53,064 bases of DNA, from IMG/VR virus record IMGVR_UViG_3300025009_000137, positions 1 through 53,064 of that record; one strand, written 5' to 3'. The notes under the pieces are model-generated. The model ran no database searches. It saw only the letters and a list, made by a program, of their open reading frames with translations, and was not told where the DNA came from. Source of the stretch: a virus. Taxonomy: Duplodnaviria; Caudoviricetes. The first letter of the stretch is position 1. Every line of letters begins with the position of its first letter. Positions 4,874 through 52,233 of the stretch are shown here, piece by piece. A program made the translations under genes and the position numbers.

Positions 4874-6264
4874 TATACAACACTTCCAGTATTAGGTAAT
4901 GTTATTTTAGGAGGTTCAACACTATCAGCTTTTTTTTCTGCATTTATTTTATTAATTTCATTATCTAACTGTTGACCTTCTAATCCATCTAATCTTCTAA
5001 TAGATGATTCTAAAGAAGATAATCCTGAGCCATACCTTTGTGTTTCAATAGTTGTTTTCTCTCCATCATCTTCAGGTAATCCATCACGCCAAAATAAGTA
5101 AACATTGTTTAATTTTGTTGCTCCTGGTTTACCTTGTGCTACTTCTAATGCAGAAGCTAATTTAAGCACTTTTTTAATTTGAGGATCAAAAGATAAACGA
5201 ATTCTGTTAACTTTTGCTAAACTTGCCATCAACAGACGTTTTAAAGCTGAACCTGATTCTGCTAATCCTTGCTTTATATTTCCAAATGCGGCAGAACTTG
5301 TCTCGCTAAGAAAATATAACTGGTCAATCAAATAATCTATTTGCTTAAATCCTGCATCGAGATGTCCCTCCCAAACTAGATAACCCGGAATAGGATCATC
5401 TTTACTTTCTATAGGATAGAATTTACTACCACCTCTGAAAGAAGATTGTCCAAATTCATCTATTTCTAAAGCACTTGATGGGCCGTACATATTCGGGTCA
5501 CTGTGCTTGTCCAAGATCCGACTGATCTGAGAAAATCTAATCTCAATTTCTTGAACAATACTATCAATATCAGTATAGTCATCATGTCCTGTCACATCTT
5601 CTGAAGTTATTAAATTAGATACACGAACAATTAAAAAATCATTTATACCTGTATTCTGTGTAGTAGATTCTACTAATTCGGATATTTTATCTTTTTGCAA
5701 TATATAAGTATTAGTTTGAATCTTACCTTTGTAGTGAATCTCTGCTCTTAAATAATCAGTTTTATTTGATGTATATGTCCATGCCAAAACATGATTAAGA
5801 ATATCACTAACATTAAAAGGATTTACTACAGGGAACCAACAGCTTGGACTGTTTGCCTGAATAATAGAATAATTATCATCATATCTAATTTTAAATAATC
5901 CATCTGCGAATCTTGAAGTATCTAAGGCAACCTTGTAACATTCCATGATAAAATTATTATCTTCAATTATTCTATCAAGATTATTTTGTTCAGGAGAATT
6001 TACATCACCTGAAACTATTCTCGGAGGCTCGCCAAAAAGCAGATCAGAAAAAAGTTTAGTAAGTCTACGATGCCAATTTAAGATGATCTCCATAGTTGCT
6101 TGTTGATCATCTCTAAGTAATCTAACCCAATCTGTATATACTTGATCATGCTTACCTTTAAATAGTAAACGATTAGTATTATACATTTTTAATCTTTCTC
6201 TGGTATCCTGATCATCTGGAGGCCATGATTGACCAATTTGTAAAAAGTTTAAATCAGTAAGTAT
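4873..6264 (-). CDS. Portal protein (SPP1 gp6-like); probable ATA start
   Basis: ESGSALKR motif; lies between terL and minor capsid; SD GGGGTG then ATA at 6264, with an in-frame TAG immediately upstream. Confidence 0.85.
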   Translation of the reverse strand: MLTDLNFLQIGQSWPPDDQDTRERLKMYNTNRLLFKGKHDQVYTDWVRLLRDDQQATMEIILNWHRRLTKLFSDLLFGEPPRIVSGDVNSPEQNNLDRIIEDNNFIMECYKVALDTSRFADGLFKIRYDDNYSIIQANSPSCWFPVVNPFNVSDILNHVLAWTYTSNKTDYLRAEIHYKGKIQTNTYILQKDKISELVESTTQNTGINDFLIVRVSNLITSEDVTGHDDYTDIDSIVQEIEIRFSQISRILDKHSDPNMYGPSSALEIDEFGQSSFRGGSKFYPIESKDDPIPGYLVWEGHLDAGFKQIDYLIDQLYFLSETSSAAFGNIKQGLAESGSALKRLLMASLAKVNRIRLSFDPQIKKVLKLASALEVAQGKPGATKLNNVYLFWRDGLPEDDGEKTTIETQRYGSGLSSLESSIRRLDGLEGQQLDNEINKINAEKKADSVEPPKITLPNTGSVV

Positions 6265-11305: not shown

Positions 11306-11489
11306 AAAAATCAATTTAAGCCCCAAATAAGACACTTAAAATCCTTACACCTAAACTTATACCTAATCAAATTTAGCTCCCCAAATAACCCTAAAATTTA
11401 GCCATTAACATACTTTGATAATCACCTCCAAACCCTTTAATATCAACACTTTATAAACACTTTTATAAATTATTAAATTTTCTATAAAT

Positions 11490-13779: not shown

Positions 13780-13950
13780 TTAATTAGATAATTTTTGTAT
13801 CTCTTCTTTTAATCCTATATCATTTCTAAAAACAAAAACTGTTCTCTCTGGAAAATCTTTATTTGGCTTTACATCGACTATCTGAAAACCTTTTCTAAGC
13901 AATGCTCTAGCCATTTTACCTGTAAAAATTAATTTCACTTGTTCGCTCAT
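13780..13950 (-). CDS. DUF5659-like small protein
   Basis: IFTGKMARALLRKGFQIVDVKPNK...TVFVF; SD GGAGGAG. Confidence 0.6.
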   Translation of the reverse strand: MSEQVKLIFTGKMARALLRKGFQIVDVKPNKDFPERTVFVFRNDIGLKEEIQKLSN

Positions 13951-14013
13951 ATCCATCTCCTCCATATAATCCGTTTTACCGGCTGGTTCTAACTCATAAA
14001 ATTAAAATCAAAT

Positions 14014-14042
14014 ATTCTATACTAAATTCATATTATTGTCAA
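14014..14042 (-). promoter_or_regulatory. SigA promoter
   Basis: TTGACA-17-TAGAAT; equivalent TTGACA-17-TAAAAT at 48392..48420. Confidence 0.75.
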
Positions 14043-14044
14043 GC

Positions 14045-14117
14045 GAAAAAAATTTTTATTGCCTTTACTCAACTGATTTATGAGTAAAGGCAAAGGAGAA
14101 TATTTATTATGGAAAAC
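14045..14117 (-). ncRNA. Anti-RBS segment plus terminator hairpin downstream of the RNAP gene
   Basis: 14094..14117 is complementary to the RNAP start region 17068..17091; stem at 14059..14093. Confidence 0.55.
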
Positions 14118-14307
14118 TTTAATATTTGAAATAATAAAGGAATAATAGTCAATCGTGATAAAACTAAGTATGCACTCCTACTATTCCTTCTCATATTGTA
14201 TAAAGTGAAACAATGCCACAAAACCCTTATATATTAGTGTTTTATAATAATTTCTATGAATTTAAAAGTCTTTGAAAAACACTCATAAACCCTTAAATAT
14301 CAATAAT

Positions 14308-17076
14308 TTATAATAGGTTTTGAAATGCGGAATTTTTCTTTTTCCTCTTTCTATCCTTTTCCTTTTTAGCTTTATCAGCACAACTTGGACACATCGTTTG
14401 CCTATTTGATGTTCTCTTTGTCCTTCTAGTACACACAGAACATGTCATACTATCAGTACCAATATTATTTTTCAAATTATCAACTATTACATCACCGAAA
14501 ACATTGAACAAAAATTCTTTCCGGCAATCTCTATCAGTTTTATAGATATGTCTGATAACCATATCTACTGCATCTTCATATTTAATATTTTCAGCTTTGC
14601 AGAATAATCTAAATTTACGTCTTAAATCATCCCATGCTATCATAGATATTTCTTGTTTTGTCATTAATTTATTCTTAAAGAAATATTTTTGCATCTCATT
14701 ATTTAATTTATCATATTCATTAGCAACAATAGAATTAATCTCTATTTTTTTGTTTCTCAGTAAATTATCATATCTAAATGTTCCAATATTATCAAATTTA
14801 TATTTTTGTTGTGGTATAGCTTCTATTTTTTTGCAAATCCTATTAACAGTAGAATTATTTATTTTTTCAACATTGCCTTTATACTCTTTCTTCACAAACT
14901 GGAAAAAGTATGGCATTTTAATTTTATCTACTAATTTTACTATATCTACCATATAACCTTGTATTTTTGGCATATATAAAGTTTTTGCAGCATCTATAGA
15001 GAAATTATTTTGAGCAACAATTGCTTTAGATACTTCAATTTTTTCAACTTTATCATCTTCAGCAATATCAAAAGTTTTAATATCACTATTCCAGATTTTA
15101 GTTAACTTGTTAGAATACTTACCTATATTTGAATATTTAAAGGCAGTAGTAAGTGAAAAATATACGTTATCAGGATTTATTATATCTGGTTTCGCAACAC
15201 TCATTTTATAATAAAGTGGCACAATACCCTTCATATTCCTTTTGGCTATCTCAACCAATTTCCCTTTTATTACCAAAGCGGTATCCCCATCGTTATCATG
15301 CATAATGAGTTTACTGATTAAATCGTGACAGCTTGTATATACTCCATTTGTAGTAAACCAGTTTTCATTTGTATAATCACATATATTTTTTCTTACTGCC
15401 CATTCCTTAAATAGATGGGGGTTTCTATTAACTGAAATTTCTTCTTCGTCCTTGTACAGCCTACATGACACTTCTCCATCTTTGAGTAATCCTTCTGGAT
15501 TCTTTATGCCACCTAAACTATATTGCATCCATGCAAATATATCAGGAATTATGAATGTGTATTTAGCAATATCACCAATTTCAAATTTACCATATTTAGC
15601 TTCATTTTTCTTTGAATTAACAATACTTCTTAACTCTTGATTTACATGAGGTTCTTTAATCATTTCAGGATATATAGATATTGCTTGCTGAAGATATGTC
15701 TTATTTTTATTGTTAACACCTAAAATATTTAGCATAAAATCACGATTAGTACATGCTCTCATTAAGTAATCAAATGTATTATCAGTCAAACACTCTAGTT
15801 CATCATCAGTTATATCTGTCAATGTCTGCCACATTTGATAGGGAACGCTCTTATTTTTAAAATCATTTTTATTAGGTTCTATATTGCATATCGAAGCATG
15901 ACATTTATTATCTTTGAATTTATCCTTATAGTCTTGCCAACTTTTATAATAGTTGTGCATCTTGAATTGGCTCTTAAAAAACACATACCTAATATCATCT
16001 TTAAGTAAATCCCATTCCTTACCATAAATATCAATAACTTCATAATTGCCGTTGTTATAATCTTTACAGTAGGATAAATAGTCCGCACTCGTAAGTAAGC
16101 CTTTCACCCAAGGTAAGCGGACCATAAAGTTTTTCTTTGAAACACTTGGGAGCATCCACCCACAGCCATCCGAATGAGTAATAGTAATACCCATTATTCT
16201 TCTCTCAGCTATGAATGTTTCATTATCAATATAATCAACAACACCAGCAACCAGTGTTTCAAAATCATCTATTACGATAGCCTTATCAATATCGAATTTA
16301 TCCCATTTTTCTGTTGCACCTGTACAGAGTGCTAAATAACTTAAGTATTTATTGATATTGCAACCATAATACTCTTCATCATCAATAGTAAATTTTGAAT
16401 TATTAATATCCTCGACAGTTAACCCACACATTAATGTATTTTTATGCTGTTCCCATACTTTTTCTTTAATCATCACGATTCGCTTTACCCTGATCTGTCC
16501 GGCACTTGCTGTAAAAAAAATATACTGTTCTCCTAAGTATGTAAATCCATTTCTAACTAACTGCTTAAACACTGAATAATGAAATATTTCAACGATAAAC
16601 AAATCTGTTGATAACTTACTGATTTCTAATTCTAATGTTCTAGTTAAATAAGAATCATGCATTGCCACTATATTGTATTTTGATAGTTTATCAGGATTTA
16701 ACTCTCTAATTAAATCATTTGATTCCAATAGTCCTTTTAATAATTTATTTTGTTGTTTTAACTCATTTTTATATTTATTATAGTTATCATTGCATTTTAA
16801 CAAATCTTTAAATCCTTTAGATTTAACTGTTTTTTTATTTTTCTTATAAAATTTATTTACATAATATCTAAATTTATCATCTGATTGTTTCTTTTGAATA
16901 AATTCAAAAACATTATCAGGTTTCTTTTTATCGTCCAAATATTCAAGTAGCCTATATTGCTGGATTGTTTTAATTTTACCATTTAATTTTCCAATTGTTC
17001 TTCTAATTAATTCTTCCTCTTGAAAATAAAAACTCTTAGTGTTTACACTGTAAATTTGAACCTGTTTGTTTTGCAT
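14308..17076 (-). CDS. YonO-like single-subunit two-barrel DNA-dependent RNA polymerase
   Basis: FFTASAGQIR, HSDGCG, VRLPWVKG, RNPHL and catalytic DNDGD, as in SPbeta YonO. Confidence 0.85.
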   Translation of the reverse strand: MQNKQVQIYSVNTKSFYFQEEELIRRTIGKLNGKIKTIQQYRLLEYLDDKKKPDNVFEFIQKKQSDDKFRYYVNKFYKKNKKTVKSKGFKDLLKCNDNYNKYKNELKQQNKLLKGLLESNDLIRELNPDKLSKYNIVAMHDSYLTRTLELEISKLSTDLFIVEIFHYSVFKQLVRNGFTYLGEQYIFFTASAGQIRVKRIVMIKEKVWEQHKNTLMCGLTVEDINNSKFTIDDEEYYGCNINKYLSYLALCTGATEKWDKFDIDKAIVIDDFETLVAGVVDYIDNETFIAERRIMGITITHSDGCGWMLPSVSKKNFMVRLPWVKGLLTSADYLSYCKDYNNGNYEVIDIYGKEWDLLKDDIRYVFFKSQFKMHNYYKSWQDYKDKFKDNKCHASICNIEPNKNDFKNKSVPYQMWQTLTDITDDELECLTDNTFDYLMRACTNRDFMLNILGVNNKNKTYLQQAISIYPEMIKEPHVNQELRSIVNSKKNEAKYGKFEIGDIAKYTFIIPDIFAWMQYSLGGIKNPEGLLKDGEVSCRLYKDEEEISVNRNPHLFKEWAVRKNICDYTNENWFTTNGVYTSCHDLISKLIMHDNDGDTALVIKGKLVEIAKRNMKGIVPLYYKMSVAKPDIINPDNVYFSLTTAFKYSNIGKYSNKLTKIWNSDIKTFDIAEDDKVEKIEVSKAIVAQNNFSIDAAKTLYMPKIQGYMVDIVKLVDKIKMPYFFQFVKKEYKGNVEKINNSTVNRICKKIEAIPQQKYKFDNIGTFRYDNLLRNKKIEINSIVANEYDKLNNEMQKYFFKNKLMTKQEISMIAWDDLRRKFRLFCKAENIKYEDAVDMVIRHIYKTDRDCRKEFLFNVFGDVIVDNLKNNIGTDSMTCSVCTRRTKRTSNRQTMCPSCADKAKKEKDRKRKKKNSAFQNLL

Positions 17077-17247
17077 ATTAATACTTCTCCTCCTATTATA
17101 AATAAGTTTAACTTGCTCCTCCCTTTAATTTGGTTTAATTTATTGTTTAATTTTCAAAGAACTAAGGGGTAGCCATTTATGTTGCCCTGGCTACCTAATG
17201 TGATAATGTTTAGTTATCTTACAGAAACACCCATTGATTTTAATTCT

Positions 17248-20441: not shown

Positions 20442-21365
20442 CTATAAATCTATTCCATTTAATGGATTATGCTTATCGTTGATAGATTTTAAAGAAGTTC
20501 CCCACAAAGCATAATATTTGTTCAGCATACTTAAATTTGCATGTCCCATCATTCTTTGTAAACTCAGCAAATCACATCCAGATTTTATCATACTTGAACA
20601 GAATGTATGTCTAAAAGTATGAGCCGACAATCTAACATTTTTGAAATTCATATTAGTCTTCAACCGTTTAAATATACATTTAACACCATTTACTGTAAGT
20701 TGTTCATTATTTCTGTTCGTGAATACAAATTCAATATTTTTGTGTTCAAATTGTTGCTGAACAAATACTTTGTATTCACAGATTTCTTTAATCAATTTTG
20801 AAGTTATTGGAATACTTCTTAAACTTCTTTTCTTACCAAAGACTGTCATAGACTGATTCTGAATGTCTATATCATCCCATTTTAGGTTTATTGCCTCACC
20901 TAATCTTATTCCAGTGGATAAAAGTGTTGTGATCAAAAAATAATCACGATAAGCCCAAAAAGTTTGATGTCTAAATTTAAGGCGTTGATAATAACCCAAC
21001 ATCTGCTTAATCTGATCATTAGTGAAGATCTCAATTTTAATATCTGTTTTGAGATAGGAAATTTTTTTAGCAGGATTATTTTTTTCGTTATAAATTCCAA
21101 TTTCCTCCATATAATTAGTAAAGATTTTGAGATTATGAAGTTTATGATTGATGCTAGTAGGATTATTAATCCTATCTTTCTGACAATGAAGCAGATAGGA
21201 TTTAATTGTTGAAGCAGTGATATCTGAGCAATCAACTACTTCTCTCTGAACACAAAAATCATGGAATTCTTGAATTGTTCTGTGATAGCCATCTATTGTT
21301 ACTTTTGACAAATTCTTAAATTCCCTGTCTTCAATGAAATCTTTAATAGCAAATTTTAACAGCAA
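20442..21365 (-). CDS. int: Tyrosine integrase of prophage A
   Basis: TGIRLGE, VFGK, HTFRH, MGH...KYY; adjacent to the tRNA fragment. Confidence 0.9.
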   Translation of the reverse strand: MLLKFAIKDFIEDREFKNLSKVTIDGYHRTIQEFHDFCVQREVVDCSDITASTIKSYLLHCQKDRINNPTSINHKLHNLKIFTNYMEEIGIYNEKNNPAKKISYLKTDIKIEIFTNDQIKQMLGYYQRLKFRHQTFWAYRDYFLITTLLSTGIRLGEAINLKWDDIDIQNQSMTVFGKKRSLRSIPITSKLIKEICEYKVFVQQQFEHKNIEFVFTNRNNEQLTVNGVKCIFKRLKTNMNFKNVRLSAHTFRHTFCSSMIKSGCDLLSLQRMMGHANLSMLNKYYALWGTSLKSINDKHNPLNGIDL

Positions 21366-37297: not shown

Positions 37298-37465
37298 ATG
37301 GCTGTTGATAAAGAAAAGAATGTCCAAATATTAGTAACATTCCCCAATGATATGCTTGAAGATATAGAAAAATATTGGCATGAGCAAAAACTGAAAAATA
37401 GAAATGAAGCTATTAGGAAACTTGTTAAAATTGGTTTAGAATCTGAAAAGACCTCTAAAAAATAA
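37298..37465 (+). CDS. Ribbon-helix-helix regulator (55 aa)
   Basis: SD AGGAGGTG; VQILVTFP...RNEAIRKLVKIGL; divergent from the recombinase. Confidence 0.8.
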   Translation: MAVDKEKNVQILVTFPNDMLEDIEKYWHEQKLKNRNEAIRKLVKIGLESEKTSKK

Positions 37466-37525
37466 GAGGTCTTTATTTTTATTCATTTTTAAGGTTAAAT
37501 ATTCAATCATCACACTCAGTTTACA

Positions 37526-37547
37526 AACTAACGCACCTTCGTTAGTT
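37526..37547. other. Palindromic putative tyrosine-recombinase site
   Basis: Identical to 194..215. Confidence 0.6.
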
Positions 37548-37554
37548 GGGTAAA

Positions 37555-39088: not shown

Positions 39089-40030
39089 TTAGGAAGTTGC
39101 TAAATTAGTTATAGTACCATGCATAAATGCCGGGCCATGAGCTAGACCAACCTGTCCAAAAATGTGTCCACTTTCAGAAGCACCAGTTTTAGAAAGAGGC
39201 TCATAAAATAGATTACCCTTCTCAGGTACAGGTTGGAATACAGGTGCAATTACACTCATATCAGCAACCAACAAAGTACCTGCTGGCATGAATCTATGAG
39301 GATCAGCAATAGCTATATTACCAAAATCAGTTTCTATTTGCTTGACATTTACGCCACCAACATTTCTATCTGTGGGAGCATAACCGTATATATCACTAAT
39401 TTTCTGTTTCTGAAAACCACCACAAAAGATTACAGGATTTTTGAAATATGCTCCATTGGCAAACATTTCTAAAAGAAGTGTATCCATTAGAGCTTTACTT
39501 AAAGCACCAGCAGAAGCATCTACTGTATTAACAGTAGATAAAGCAATCATACCTCTGGTTTTATTCGCTACACCAGCATTAACAGCAATTTGATATACAC
39601 CATTGATAAAGCTATACTCAACGTCACGAGCAATTTTTTCTAATGCTTTAGCAATTTGCCAATCTCTTTCTGAAGTTACGTTGTTCTCTGCACTAGCAGT
39701 ATTAATACCAGTTAATCTTCCCTGATTACTCAATCTAACATAAGAAATAGAAATTGCTTCTTGGAAAATTTGAACCACGTTTTTACTTTGATTTCTTACA
39801 TATGAAATAGCTGTAGGTGCTGTTAAACTTGCAGTTTCGGTAATAGCTGGTTGTGCTGCTGCTTCATGTGAATACTGACTATCTGTTGCAAATTCAAAAT
39901 TATCTGTTTGCATACCACCAGTTAAGCCACCAATCATTGAAAGAAAAGGTGTATTAACTACATCTGAGGTGAATAATTCCCCTGTATAATTAGGTAAATT
40001 CCATACTGTTCCGGCTGCTACGTTTGCCAT
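39089..40030 (-). CDS. Major capsid protein (DUF5309/SU10-like family)
   Basis: LPNYTGELF, TPFLSMIGG, RDVEYSFING, ETDFG; follows the scaffold gene. Confidence 0.8.
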   Translation of the reverse strand: MANVAAGTVWNLPNYTGELFTSDVVNTPFLSMIGGLTGGMQTDNFEFATDSQYSHEAAAQPAITETASLTAPTAISYVRNQSKNVVQIFQEAISISYVRLSNQGRLTGINTASAENNVTSERDWQIAKALEKIARDVEYSFINGVYQIAVNAGVANKTRGMIALSTVNTVDASAGALSKALMDTLLLEMFANGAYFKNPVIFCGGFQKQKISDIYGYAPTDRNVGGVNVKQIETDFGNIAIADPHRFMPAGTLLVADMSVIAPVFQPVPEKGNLFYEPLSKTGASESGHIFGQVGLAHGPAFMHGTITNLATS

Positions 40031-47793: not shown

Positions 47794-48218
47794 ATTTTCA
47801 CCTCCTCTGCAAAATAAAAAAGACTACCCATTTTTGGACAGTCTAAATTTTTAATTTCTATTAATTTAAAGGTTGATCACCCAAAGACTTTTAAGTTCAT
47901 CTGACAAAATGTCATGTGGATTATAAATTAAAAATTATCTTAACAAACGGCACAGCATAATACTGTACTGACAACTTCTCTGACTTCGACTGAAAAACTC
48001 AATTTAACCCCCTATTTAGCCTCTTAAATTATCAACACATAAACTTATACCTAATTCAAAATAACTCTTAAAATAGCCTTAAAATTTAACGAATTTCAAT
48101 ATAACAAAAACACCTTTAAACCCTTATAAATCAATACTTTATAGGCATTTTTATAAATTATTGATATTTGCATTAAATCTAGCATGTTAACCCTATTTTT
48201 ATATCTTCTAAACTTTCA

Positions 48219-48365
48219 TCATTGTATTTTTTTTGCTTCTTGGATCTCTCTGATAATATCATCGTTCATTTCTATCAATTTTTTAAAGCTGTCCATCATG
48301 TGCTGGTGATTAACTTCGATCAATAATTTGAATTCTTGTATCATCTTTAAATCTTCATTATACAT
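48219..48365 (-). CDS. Short hypothetical protein (48 aa, possibly truncated at an A run)
   Basis: SD AGGAGG after a SigA promoter; same slot as 11490..11738. Confidence 0.4.
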   Translation of the reverse strand: MYNEDLKMIQEFKLLIEVNHQHMMDSFKKLIEMNDDIIREIQEAKKIQ

Positions 48366-48424
48366 ATCATCCTCCTAAAATAAAATTAAAAATTTTATAC
48401 TAATTTTATAATATTGTCAAGCGT

Positions 48425-48498
48425 AAAAAAAATTTTTCTGCCTTTATTCGTTAATCAGATAAATAAAGGCAGAAGGAGAATTATTTATTATGGAAAAT
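48425..48498 (-). ncRNA. Anti-RBS segment plus terminator hairpin downstream of the RNAP gene
   Basis: 48474..48498 is complementary to 51656..51680; stem at 48436..48474. Confidence 0.55.
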
Positions 48499-48682
48499 AT
48501 TTTCTAGCTAGTTTGCATATTTGTTTATCGCATTGCAATACAGCGACCCAACCTACTTTATTTTCGCATTGTGTGAGTATACCGTATACTTTATATACTC
48601 ATATATCCCATTATGGTGATAACCTATAAATTATTGTTATTCTTTGGTTTATCGTCATTTTATTTTTTTCTCATTTTAGGGA

Positions 48683-51664
48683 TTAAACCCAATACCTTTT
48701 TGTCTTAATTATCTCTTTCTTTTCTTGAAAGCATTTCATAAAACTTTCTGGATAAGAATTGTATATTAGTGTTAAAGTTAACATTGTCATTTCTTTTAAT
48801 TCTTTAACTATACTAATGAATTCTTCTTCATAATCCCAATCCCAGTAAGTTATTATATTATCGTTTTTATCAATACGGCTTATCATCTGTGACTGATAGT
48901 TTTTATCAAGATTAAACGCTCTCAGCAATATCCTATAAACAGTTTTTTCATTTAATTCTAATCCTTCTAATTGCTTAATTGCAGTTTTCTTAGCCCATCT
49001 TCTGAGATTATTTTTTTGTGTGGCTTCAGTTTCATTATCAGTAGCACAATAAACATTCTGATTTATTACAGATTGGCAAGTATCAATAATCCTTCTTGCA
49101 TTATCAATTTTCTTACCACAAAAAGCTCCACCAGTGAGGTCTTTTTGCATTACTAATAAATCTTGCATATCTACCTTGTCTGTTTCTCTTGCTTTTGTAT
49201 TTATTCCGTCTATAATTTCTTCCAGATAATCCATGCTACATTCCATTTTTGTTGGTATCCTAAAACTATTATCTTTAGCAATATATGTAAAGAAATAAGG
49301 AACAACCATTTTCCTTTCGTATACTTTTATTTCCTTTTGAAATATTTCAGGAATTTCTAATTTATTAACAGTTTTACACAATTTAACTAAATTATCTAAA
49401 TCATTAATTTCATCAATCGACTCATATTTCATTTTGTAATTTTTATCTTTTATATACTTAATATACTCTTTGATATATTCTTCAATAGTTATAGTTTTCG
49501 GATTCTTCTTGTCCAATTCAAACTGTAATATTTGCTCGTTCTCACCTTTTTCATTAACATAACAAGTCTTATTTAACTTGTTCATCTCTTTTGTTAAACT
49601 TAATTCTAAAAAATTTTTCTTAGCCATATCAATAGCTATCTGGCTGAAACTACTGAGCGTAGATGAAGCATCGTAACAAGCATCTATATAGTTTTCACTC
49701 TTTCCATTGTTAATTCCATCATACATATATCCATTAAATATAGCAGATTTATTTACAATTTTTCCAATCAATCTAGTTGACCCACCCAAAAAATTATCCA
49801 ATTCTGCAAGTGATTCATTGTTTAATACTTTCTTATCGTTACTGCCTTTAATACCATTTACAGGCGTAGGTGATAACTGACTATCTTTTGCCTTAGATAC
49901 TAATAATTCATTATCGCTCAAATAGCATGAATCTATGTCCCAATCACAGCCCTGAAGACGATTCATCACATCTACATTGTAACTATTAACAAAGACAATA
50001 AAATCATATTGTGGTTGTAGTTTACCATTTTCATTTTTTTTGTAATATCCAAACCATTTATACTCTTCGTGAAATTTATTGGTCATACAACCAATGTTAC
50101 CAGCATTAATTTGTGGGTTACGTATAACCAGCAATTCTTTATTATCTGTAAATCTAGGACAATAACACTCCCATCCATCCATTATACAACTATCAATTTT
50201 ATTATCTTCTCTAGTAGTGGCAACCAGCATTTCATATGGGCAAGAAATCATTATGGCATACAAGCTATTTTTAATTCTAATCTTGCCCAATCTTAAGTTT
50301 CTTATATAATCCTGCAATTGCTCATTTTTCCAGTCCTTAAATTTCCTGGTAAACCTAAAATAACTATTTTTGTTTAATAAATCTGCAACCATATCTCCAG
50401 TAGTCAATTTTTCTTTGTTACTCTTAATTAAATCTAAAAAATAGGACATTCTATTTCTTGTGTCTCTATTGACAACCTTATTCTTTTCTGACATTTTTCT
50501 TATATCTTGGCCTGTTTCTAATACGCTATCTTTGAGCAGTTTAAAATATTTTAATTCATCCTGCATAAGACTTTTTACCTGATCTCTGTCTAGGTTCATT
50601 GAATTGATCATTTGATACGATAACCTGTTTGAGTATCTATAATTACCTGAATGATCTATCTTTACTACTCCAAAAGTAGAAGGTACTTTTTTTAACCAAT
50701 TCATAAAACAATCTTTTTCACTCTCGAATTGATCTGCAAATTTTAAATATTTACAGGCTGAGGAAGTTATAACGAGTTTAATTTTATCCGCAGCTATCCA
50801 TCCTCCAAACTTATCAAATACTTTGGTAATATTATTTTCCTTGTAATATTCTTGCAATCTAGTTCTTACAGCATTTCCTTTAAAAAAGTCATTTCGCAAC
50901 AATACACAAGTAGCTTCATTAATTAATTCGTTATCTAAAAAAATAGATTCATCCATAAGTAATTGTCCATCAGTCATATTGTTCTCTACGTCAAATTCAC
51001 CTACATCTTGATATATATTACCTTCATTATTTATTCTAGTAACTGATTGAGCAGCTTTGAATTCTGGACTTTCTAAATCATCAATGATTAGTATTTCCTC
51101 ACTCTTAATTTCAATGGTTCCAATTATACCTGACATAATAAGGCTAATATAAGCTTCTTTAGAGGTGATATCATATTCTTCACCTTCCTCAAATTTAAGT
51201 CCTAACAGAGAAGGTTTAATGAGTAAATTATAGTGATCTTTTTTCACAAATATGACGTTTGCTGTGCGAGCTTTTGAGGCTCCTCTCTTAAAGTAACGAT
51301 ATTCTATATCATCAATTTTTACTGTTGATGTATATATTAATTTTCTTAATTTCTTTTTATTAACTCTAGTAGTTGTATCGTCTGTATCACTATCATCAAA
51401 ACGATCTTTTGTGAACTTAAAATTAACAAATAGTTTAGTAAAATCTCCATCCACTACCTCTTTGGGTAATTCACCAAATGCCCTCAAAGTTTCTAAAGAC
51501 TCCGGCATTGTAGCACTAAATAATTTATCTTTGTTTGGCTTTATCGTAATTTCTTTATCATTTTTATCCTTATATTTTTTTTCTTCTATAGTGCTAAATA
51601 CAAATTCATTATCTTTTTTATTTAACCATGCACCTTCTAAATTTAATATCCTATAATTCTCCAT
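48683..51664 (-). CDS. Single-subunit two-barrel RNA polymerase (cellular RdRP/YonO-related), divergent from the A enzyme
   Basis: FKRGASKAR, TDGQ, LRNDFFKG, LSYQMINS, RNPQI, catalytic GCDWDID, QIAIDMAKK. Confidence 0.8.
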   Translation of the reverse strand: MENYRILNLEGAWLNKKDNEFVFSTIEEKKYKDKNDKEITIKPNKDKLFSATMPESLETLRAFGELPKEVVDGDFTKLFVNFKFTKDRFDDSDTDDTTTRVNKKKLRKLIYTSTVKIDDIEYRYFKRGASKARTANVIFVKKDHYNLLIKPSLLGLKFEEGEEYDITSKEAYISLIMSGIIGTIEIKSEEILIIDDLESPEFKAAQSVTRINNEGNIYQDVGEFDVENNMTDGQLLMDESIFLDNELINEATCVLLRNDFFKGNAVRTRLQEYYKENNITKVFDKFGGWIAADKIKLVITSSACKYLKFADQFESEKDCFMNWLKKVPSTFGVVKIDHSGNYRYSNRLSYQMINSMNLDRDQVKSLMQDELKYFKLLKDSVLETGQDIRKMSEKNKVVNRDTRNRMSYFLDLIKSNKEKLTTGDMVADLLNKNSYFRFTRKFKDWKNEQLQDYIRNLRLGKIRIKNSLYAIMISCPYEMLVATTREDNKIDSCIMDGWECYCPRFTDNKELLVIRNPQINAGNIGCMTNKFHEEYKWFGYYKKNENGKLQPQYDFIVFVNSYNVDVMNRLQGCDWDIDSCYLSDNELLVSKAKDSQLSPTPVNGIKGSNDKKVLNNESLAELDNFLGGSTRLIGKIVNKSAIFNGYMYDGINNGKSENYIDACYDASSTLSSFSQIAIDMAKKNFLELSLTKEMNKLNKTCYVNEKGENEQILQFELDKKNPKTITIEEYIKEYIKYIKDKNYKMKYESIDEINDLDNLVKLCKTVNKLEIPEIFQKEIKVYERKMVVPYFFTYIAKDNSFRIPTKMECSMDYLEEIIDGINTKARETDKVDMQDLLVMQKDLTGGAFCGKKIDNARRIIDTCQSVINQNVYCATDNETEATQKNNLRRWAKKTAIKQLEGLELNEKTVYRILLRAFNLDKNYQSQMISRIDKNDNIITYWDWDYEEEFISIVKELKEMTMLTLTLIYNSYPESFMKCFQEKKEIIKTKRYWV

Positions 51665-52233
51665 AATATAAAATCCTCCTATTTGTGTATTTTTTATTTT
51701 TACTTTATAAATATAAATTTGGAAGTTTTGCGTTTAAACGCAAAAATGACAATCATGCCATGAGGCGGTCTTATTACCTAGTCAAAAAACAAAGACACAA
51801 AACATGTTGAGTTTACTTTTCGCTTAACCGCGAAAACTAACCACAACTTTATTATTAATATTATTTTTTTTTATTGTATAGTTTAATAGAATATTTATTT
51901 TAATTTTACACGTTTATTTTATTTTATTTCTTTATGGGTTTATGGGCAAGCCCATACCCATCAGAAAGGTAAAAGTAAAAGTAAATCCTGAAATTAAAAT
52001 TTAGCATAAATATATGTATATTATTTATTTTACTAAGCTTTAACCTAAAGGCATACGTTAGGTAAAATTCGCTTTGGCTTCATTTTACCTAACGGGCTGT
52101 CTAAATATTTTCATAAGAAAATATTTTATCCATCCAGGAGTATTTTTAATTGTATCCCTTTTTTATTTGCTACCCAGTTTTACTAATTAATCTATATAAT
52201 ATAATTTTATAGTAAAAGTGGGTAGTTAATTGA

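Follow-up and report, generated by a model that had tools for sequence, protein, structure and literature searches.

A 3'-UTR element complementary to the start regions of two YonO-like phage RNA polymerase genes, and a candidate for long-range control of one of them

The window, by which we mean the whole stretch of DNA analysed, is a complete virus record of 53,064 bases that contains two related phage-like blocks, A (about 1–25,400) and B (about 25,400–53,064); most of the genes lie on the minus strand. The blocks have long stretches in common at 73–84% identity, the head and packaging modules among them, and a tyrosine integrase gene (20442–21365) lies at the prophage end. The record has the look of a tandem of two related prophage-like genomes, or of a join made in assembly; positions 1–220 match 37336–37552 at 94%. 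A search of the whole window against Rfam returned nothing at gathering thresholds.

At an equal relative position in each block, upstream of a resolvase/terminase/portal gene cluster, lies a minus-strand gene for an RNA polymerase: that of polymerase A (14308–17076, 922 aa), a YonO-like single-chain RNAP, and that of polymerase B (48683–51664, 993 aa), a distant YonO-like protein. Both open reading frames match phrog_8308 (E = 4e-215 for A and 1e-64 for B), and protein A is 41.6% identical to YonO of phage SPbeta over 84% of its length; Pfam gave no match for either polymerase. The metal-binding motif reads HDNDGD in polymerase A and DWDID in polymerase B, and the three Asp columns of the DxDxD pattern are invariant in an alignment of seven sequences. 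Homology and the DxDGD-type motif place both proteins among the predicted YonO-like single-chain two-barrel RNA polymerases. The two are barely alignable with each other, as had been reported (best BLASTP E-value 0.09), and the slot common to both blocks holds polymerases of different subfamilies. A survey of YonO-like genes drawing on loci L011–L090 showed that weak start codons are widespread in this family: among 64 non-redundant loci the predicted start is ATG in 21, TTG in 24 and ATT, ATA or ATC in 19. In 8 of the 43 loci with an aligned N-terminus there is no in-frame ATG, GTG or TTG from the upstream stop to six codons past the start, so that AUA or AUU behind a good Shine–Dalgarno (SD) sequence must serve. 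This suggests that the translation of YonO-like polymerases is generally kept low.

Downstream of the polymerase genes, the transcript has the same layout in both blocks: stop codon, about 190 nt of block-specific 3'-UTR, an element of 24–25 nt, a hairpin, an A/T tract, a promoter and a small gene. The element lies on the coding strand between the polymerase stop codon and the hairpin (eA, 14094–14117; eB, 48474–48498; both minus strand), and on the polymerase mRNA it comprises an anti-SD sequence, UUCUCCUU, an AU-rich spacer, an anti-AUG and two codons. Read on the transcript strand, eA reverse-complements an SD with its spacer, the AUG and the two codons after it; read on the plus strand, it is a ribosome-binding site (RBS) with a mini-ORF of six codons. 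The proposed targets are the start regions of the two polymerase genes on the minus strand, tA (17068–17091; AGGAG, 10 nt, ATG and two codons) and tB (51656–51680). The part of the 3'-UTR specific to block A (14118–14307, minus strand) is not common to B and carries two copies of the motif ATATWTAAGGGTTT (14221–14234 and 14287–14300). Two further minus-strand copies, all four having at most one mismatch, occupy homologous A and B positions in a long non-coding gap (11430–11443 and 48118–48131); the motif may be a promoter or a protein-binding site.

Element, hairpin, A/T tract and promoter all fall within an isolated 128-nt island of homology between the blocks (13993–14116 = 48372–48497, 81% identity), and the element forms the outer edge of this island of about 125 nt. 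With two differences in 25 positions against an expected divergence of 19%, the conservation of the element does not significantly exceed that of its surroundings in the island (P = 0.12). In each block the A/T tract is followed on the minus strand by a near-consensus promoter of the sigma-A type (11/12 in both), TTGACA-17-TAGAAT at 14042–14014 behind the tract at 14046–14058 in block A (together 14014–14058) and TTGACA-17-TAAAAT at 48420–48392 in block B (with its tract, 48392–48437). Each promoter is the best site of the region scanned (3.7 kb in A) and faces the downstream genes, and the A/T tract may, as we infer, act as an UP-like element for it. In two groundwater runs, contigs join across a 195-nt stretch (window 48169–48365) that carries the small gene 48219–48365, so a variant without this gene exists beside the island.

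The hairpins themselves are well defined. Hairpin A (14059–14093, minus strand), directly 3' of eA, has a stem of 13 bp and a loop of 9 nt, and its fold has a z-score of −5.4 over a stretch of 111 nt; hairpin B (48438–48472, minus strand) has 12 bp and a loop of 11 nt. Comparison of the stems by eye bears out the compensatory changes noted earlier, with two double changes between A and B (T-A to C-G and C-G to T-A), and a third, single difference gives a U·G pair on the minus-strand RNA only. The preliminary description had called these structures terminators, and of that reading the stable stem of 12–13 bp stands, while the T run comes late: it starts 5–6 bases past the stem, after AAUAAAAA in A or AAAAA in B. 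Neither hairpin therefore has the U run within 0–2 nt of the stem that defines an intrinsic terminator, and neither was called in a terminator scan whose loop limit lies below the 9–11 nt of these loops. It is doubtful that the hairpin ends transcription; given the five to six A residues between the hairpin and the T run, transcription may read through.

The complementarity between element and polymerase start was recovered exactly as first reported. The plus-strand sequence of eA agrees with the reverse complement of 17068–17091 at 19 of 24 positions, and that of eB with the reverse complement of 51656–51680 at 21 of 25, two of the four mismatches being potential G-U pairs; AGGAG and ATG lie 10 nt apart in the two sequences of A and 11 nt apart in the two of B. 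The preliminary description had made its claim depend on the match being better than that to other RBSs of the phage, and this is the case: in ungapped, ATG-aligned comparisons the polymerase start of the same block ranks first among the 81 predicted starts of the window for each element, with the next-best starts scoring 17 (against 19) for eA and 19 (against 21) for eB. Among 387 distinct start regions of the other phage loci fetched, none reaches 19/24 with eA and one reaches 21/25 with eB; the latter is taken to be that of L092, a locus itself fetched by the element pattern. As a background, 46 well-supported start regions were compared with one another in 1,035 pairs, of which five score at least 19/24 and two at least 21/25, these two (also counted among the five) being A/B homologues. 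The first rank among 81 starts, the background counts and the rarity of such scores among the 387 other starts together indicate a likeness beyond the generic resemblance of one RBS to another. When one gap is allowed, the own start remains first of 81 for eB; for eA it comes only third, behind the polymerase B start and the start of the gene at 39089–40030. In local folds eB is unpaired and eA half unpaired. The anti-SD pentamer CUCCU is no scarce sequence on this sense strand, occurring 26 times where shuffled sequences predict 9.8.

The earlier claim that element and target co-vary did not survive closer comparison, as cross pairs are about as good as own pairs. With one bulge allowed, both own pairs score 21/25 and both cross pairs 20/25, and the four sequences (eA, eB, tA and tB) are mutually similar, with 17–23 of 25 positions in agreement when a gap is permitted. 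The elements differ from each other at only two of 25 positions, the start regions at eight. Predicted cofolding energies (ddG) are −25.7 kcal/mol for tB with eB, −29.4 for tB with eA, −9.1 for tA with eA and −6.2 for tA with eB, so that eA binds the polymerase B start more strongly than eB does. Relative to the polymerase loci L004 and L175 it is tB that is derived, and by eye six of its seven differences from L004 agree with the element. A co-evolving pair of element and polymerase start is not supported.

Set against all 81 predicted starts of the window, for which the mean ddG is −7.6 (sd 4.9), tB is the best target of both elements among real genes, whereas the pairing of tA with eA is average and lies outside the top 12. 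We also considered pairing of the element with the RBS of the downstream gene on a read-through RNA and rejected it: the gene at 48219–48365 gives −11.8 and −7.4, and that at 13780–13950 is outside the top 12. The same division between the blocks is seen when whole mRNAs are folded. In the minimum free energy (MFE) fold of a 3,292-nt model of mRNA B, 22 of the 25 start-region bases pair with eB; in that of mRNA A, the count of start-region bases paired with eA is 0 of 24, and the anti-SD part instead pairs with an upstream SD-like sequence, GGGAGGAG, in the leader. Six control mRNAs of YonO-like genes have 0–7 of 25 start bases so paired. MFE folds of RNAs of about 3 kb are unreliable, and we take these folds as supporting evidence only.

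Comparison with other loci restricts the element to a narrow lineage. We scored every 25-mer within 80 nt of a polymerase start against the 350 nt downstream of the stop; the best antisense scores are 19 for A and 21 for B, 14–18 for 62 other non-redundant YonO-like loci and 13–20 for 512 cross-locus controls. In these 62 loci complementarity of this kind does not rise above that of the controls, and no own-RBS complementarity was seen in the SPbeta-like loci among those compared. That YonO-like polymerase genes carry the element across the family is not supported. A search of viral contigs with the element pattern found only two unrelated matches, the first within a coding region and the second a real gene start (L092, an unrelated phage in which the same 23-mer serves as that start), and a search with the promoter pattern gave no matches. 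The metagenome pattern search yielded a single contig, L094, a close relative of B with a polymerase 89% identical to that of B, with the island present in the same orientation as in B. Its element and start region are both identical to those of B, which makes it uninformative on co-variation. The identity around the start (window 51633–51682, L094 1893–1942) extends over 50 nt comprising the SD, the start codon and the first ten or so codons, with diverging flanks, and can be read as the trace of a recombination patch or as a sign that the start region is constrained. When the island was compared by blastn with all other fetched loci, it was found only in L094, apart from the pattern-fetched L091 and L092, which match over 22–24 nt of the element; it is missing from 80 loci fetched via the neighbouring resolvase gene. 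L004 and L175, which carry other B-type polymerases (64% and 55% identity), are without the element and have ordinary terminators. Independent instances of the element number only two, and really about one and a half.

A second conserved feature came to light in the 3'-UTR of the B-type polymerases. Just upstream of eB lies a non-coding block of about 105 nt (48515–48621, minus strand), also found at 4960–5066 in L094, at about 5403–5521 in L004 and at about 5775–5880 in L175; it directly follows the B-type polymerase genes and is strongly conserved despite protein identities to B of 55–64%. RNAalifold predicts a weak consensus structure, with three compensatory pairs among the four sequences. 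Matches to Rfam over 48380–48720 are at chance level (E = 0.14–0.9), and a pattern search of viral contigs for the block retrieved only two contigs, both known already. The block could be a structured RNA, or a promoter or leader of the phage polymerase.

For polymerase B, the observations agree with a 3'-UTR anti-RBS element of a kind described for icaR of Staphylococcus aureus, and we favour this reading tentatively, at rather less than even confidence. On the model, the 3'-UTR element of the phage B mRNA would fold back over about 3.2 kb onto the polymerase start and occlude the SD–AUG region, which would lower translation of polymerase B and probably the stability of its mRNA as well. The autoregulatory fold-back of about 3 kb put forward in the preliminary description is in this way predicted for polymerase B (−25.7 kcal/mol; 22 of 25 bases) and not for polymerase A (−9.1 kcal/mol; 0 of 24). 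Phage A has the island too, but the pairing there is weak; the element of this phage is probably carried along as a passenger in the island, or serves at most as a generic anti-SD sequence of little strength.

Published precedents, namely icaR and long-range anti-SD sequences of Bacillus subtilis, make such a fold-back plausible by analogy. In the icaR mRNA, a pyrimidine-rich anti-SD sequence within a long 3'-UTR is predicted to block initiation by pairing with the SD of that mRNA (PMC3868564). The likeness lies in an anti-SD sequence in the 3'-UTR set against its own SD, both systems being of the low-GC Gram-positive type. The icaR mRNA differs in being a short repressor mRNA; here the mRNA is that of a phage polymerase, the predicted pairing spans SD, spacer, AUG and two codons (24–25 nt) at a distance of about 3.2 kb, and conservation is confined to one lineage. 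In B. subtilis, anti-SD-like runs "several hundred nucleotides" downstream pair with the RBS, inhibit initiation and promote decay, and anti-SD-like sequences are depleted from genes (PMC12697547). The pyrimidine run in our element resembles these; the distance of about 3 kb and the undepleted CUCCU on the phage sense strand set it apart from them. A 5'/3'-UTR interaction in another Firmicute mRNA, that of B. subtilis hbs, is reported to be linked to translation and RNase action (PMC5737220), a parallel of general kind. For SPbeta, yonO is described together with a late promoter and a non-coding RNA at which YonO starts the late operon, the gene lying upstream of those thought to be its targets; the account leaves the promoter open (PMC5467207). 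A YonO-type gene upstream of presumed target genes, with non-coding sequence between, is thus common to SPbeta and to our blocks. In SPbeta, however, a stem-loop directly follows yonO, and yonN and a gap of 1.7 kb come before yonK. If real, the fold-back would extend an already known type of control by anti-SD sequences in 3'-UTRs.

The likeness may instead be coincidental and have no regulatory role, the element being an RBS-like stretch, for example a former plus-strand gene start, carried in a recently exchanged island and agreeing with the polymerase starts by chance, as AT-rich RBSs with long spacing may; we regard this as nearly as likely as the fold-back. It would account for the position of the element exactly at the edge of an isolated 128-nt island (81% identity), for its being no better kept than its surroundings (P = 0.12), for the use of the same 23-mer as a gene start in the unrelated L092, and for the mutual similarity of the four sequences, in which cross pairs equal own pairs. 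The average pairing energy at polymerase A and the lack of the element at related polymerase loci point the same way. What it does not readily explain is that the own polymerase start is the best of 81 in ungapped comparison in both blocks, with 386–387 start regions elsewhere falling short, and that both elements are predicted to pair far better with tB than with the start of any other real gene; nor does any plus-strand gene or promoter account for an RBS at this place. The seed of small RNAs derived from 3' ends usually lies directly 5' of the terminal hairpin, and this is where the antisense stretch is found, as it would be in a short, hairpin-ended RNA that represses translation of the polymerase in trans. 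Such an RNA might be cut out of the 3'-UTR or initiated within it, possibly by the phage polymerase, much as YonO of SPbeta starts its late operon at a non-coding RNA. Negative feedback would result, and might extend to both phages. For each element tB is the best predicted partner, and the conserved block of about 105 nt lies just upstream of eB, with counterparts at the same kind of site in all four B-type loci. We nevertheless consider this unlikely. The separate small RNA suggested earlier finds no promoter that stands out in either 3'-UTR (no strong host-type site, the best being 9/12 in B and none in A), and L004 and L175 carry the block without the element.

Two further readings take the element as something other than an antisense sequence on the polymerase mRNA. 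Stem-loops beside an SD act as 5' mRNA stabilisers in Bacillus, and the hairpin with its neighbouring SD resembles them; hairpin, SD and mini-ORF (MENFNI in A, MENIF in B) could together make up the 5' portion of an antisense RNA that runs into the polymerase gene, with either an RNA stabilised by stem-loop and ribosome binding or translation of the mini-ORF as the functional unit. AGGAG followed after 5–10 nt by ATG occurs just four times on the plus strand, and M-E-N, the first three codons, persist despite a synonymous AAC/AAT change. Even so, a function on the plus strand is distinctly unlikely: the best upstream plus-strand promoter reaches at most 9/12 with a −35 box that is not conserved, the mini-ORFs have only 5–6 codons, diverge after codon 3 and end at different stops, and the single-sided stem change leaves a C-A mismatch in plus-strand RNA. 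Recoding of the mini-ORF stop codon was likewise discarded, the stops being TGA in A and TAG in B, and so was a 47-codon minus-strand ORF through eA (14078–14221) for a small hydrophobic, toxin-like peptide; it has no SD, block B does not conserve it as an ORF, and its frame is shifted by the A/B indel. At the DNA level, the imperfect inverted repeats of about 25 bp that bracket each 3-kb polymerase gene might be sites of protein binding, recombination or cassette inversion, and the polymerase genes in this slot are indeed exchanged cassettes of different subfamilies. This seems highly improbable to us, as the sequence has neither internal dyad symmetry nor a flanking target-site duplication, repeats of 25 bp with 79–84% identity are ill suited to recombination, and L094 and B agree in orientation. 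The tyrosine integrase at the prophage end, at a distance of 3.4 kb, is the only recombinase found. No strand-changing joint was found over 48100–52000 in the contigs of four DNA runs, a count that covers contigs only and cannot prove absence.

A more far-reaching form of the small-RNA idea, which we hold to be very unlikely, is that activity of the polymerase or processing of its mRNA yields a short, hairpin-ended RNA whose anti-RBS stops translation of the polymerase, also in a related prophage resident in the same cell, the latter suggested because both elements bind the polymerase B start best. If true, this would constitute an auto- and cross-regulatory RNA loop for a YonO-type polymerase, and it would parallel the wide use of weak start codons that limit the polymerase in this family. 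As it stands, the element is a single lineage-restricted case with computational support, and its main value lies in a cheap, well-defined reporter experiment rather than in a general rule. If the fold-back on polymerase B is real, it would show icaR-like control by a 3'-UTR at work in a phage, across about 3 kb, and offer a simple handle on the dosage control of a late-gene polymerase.
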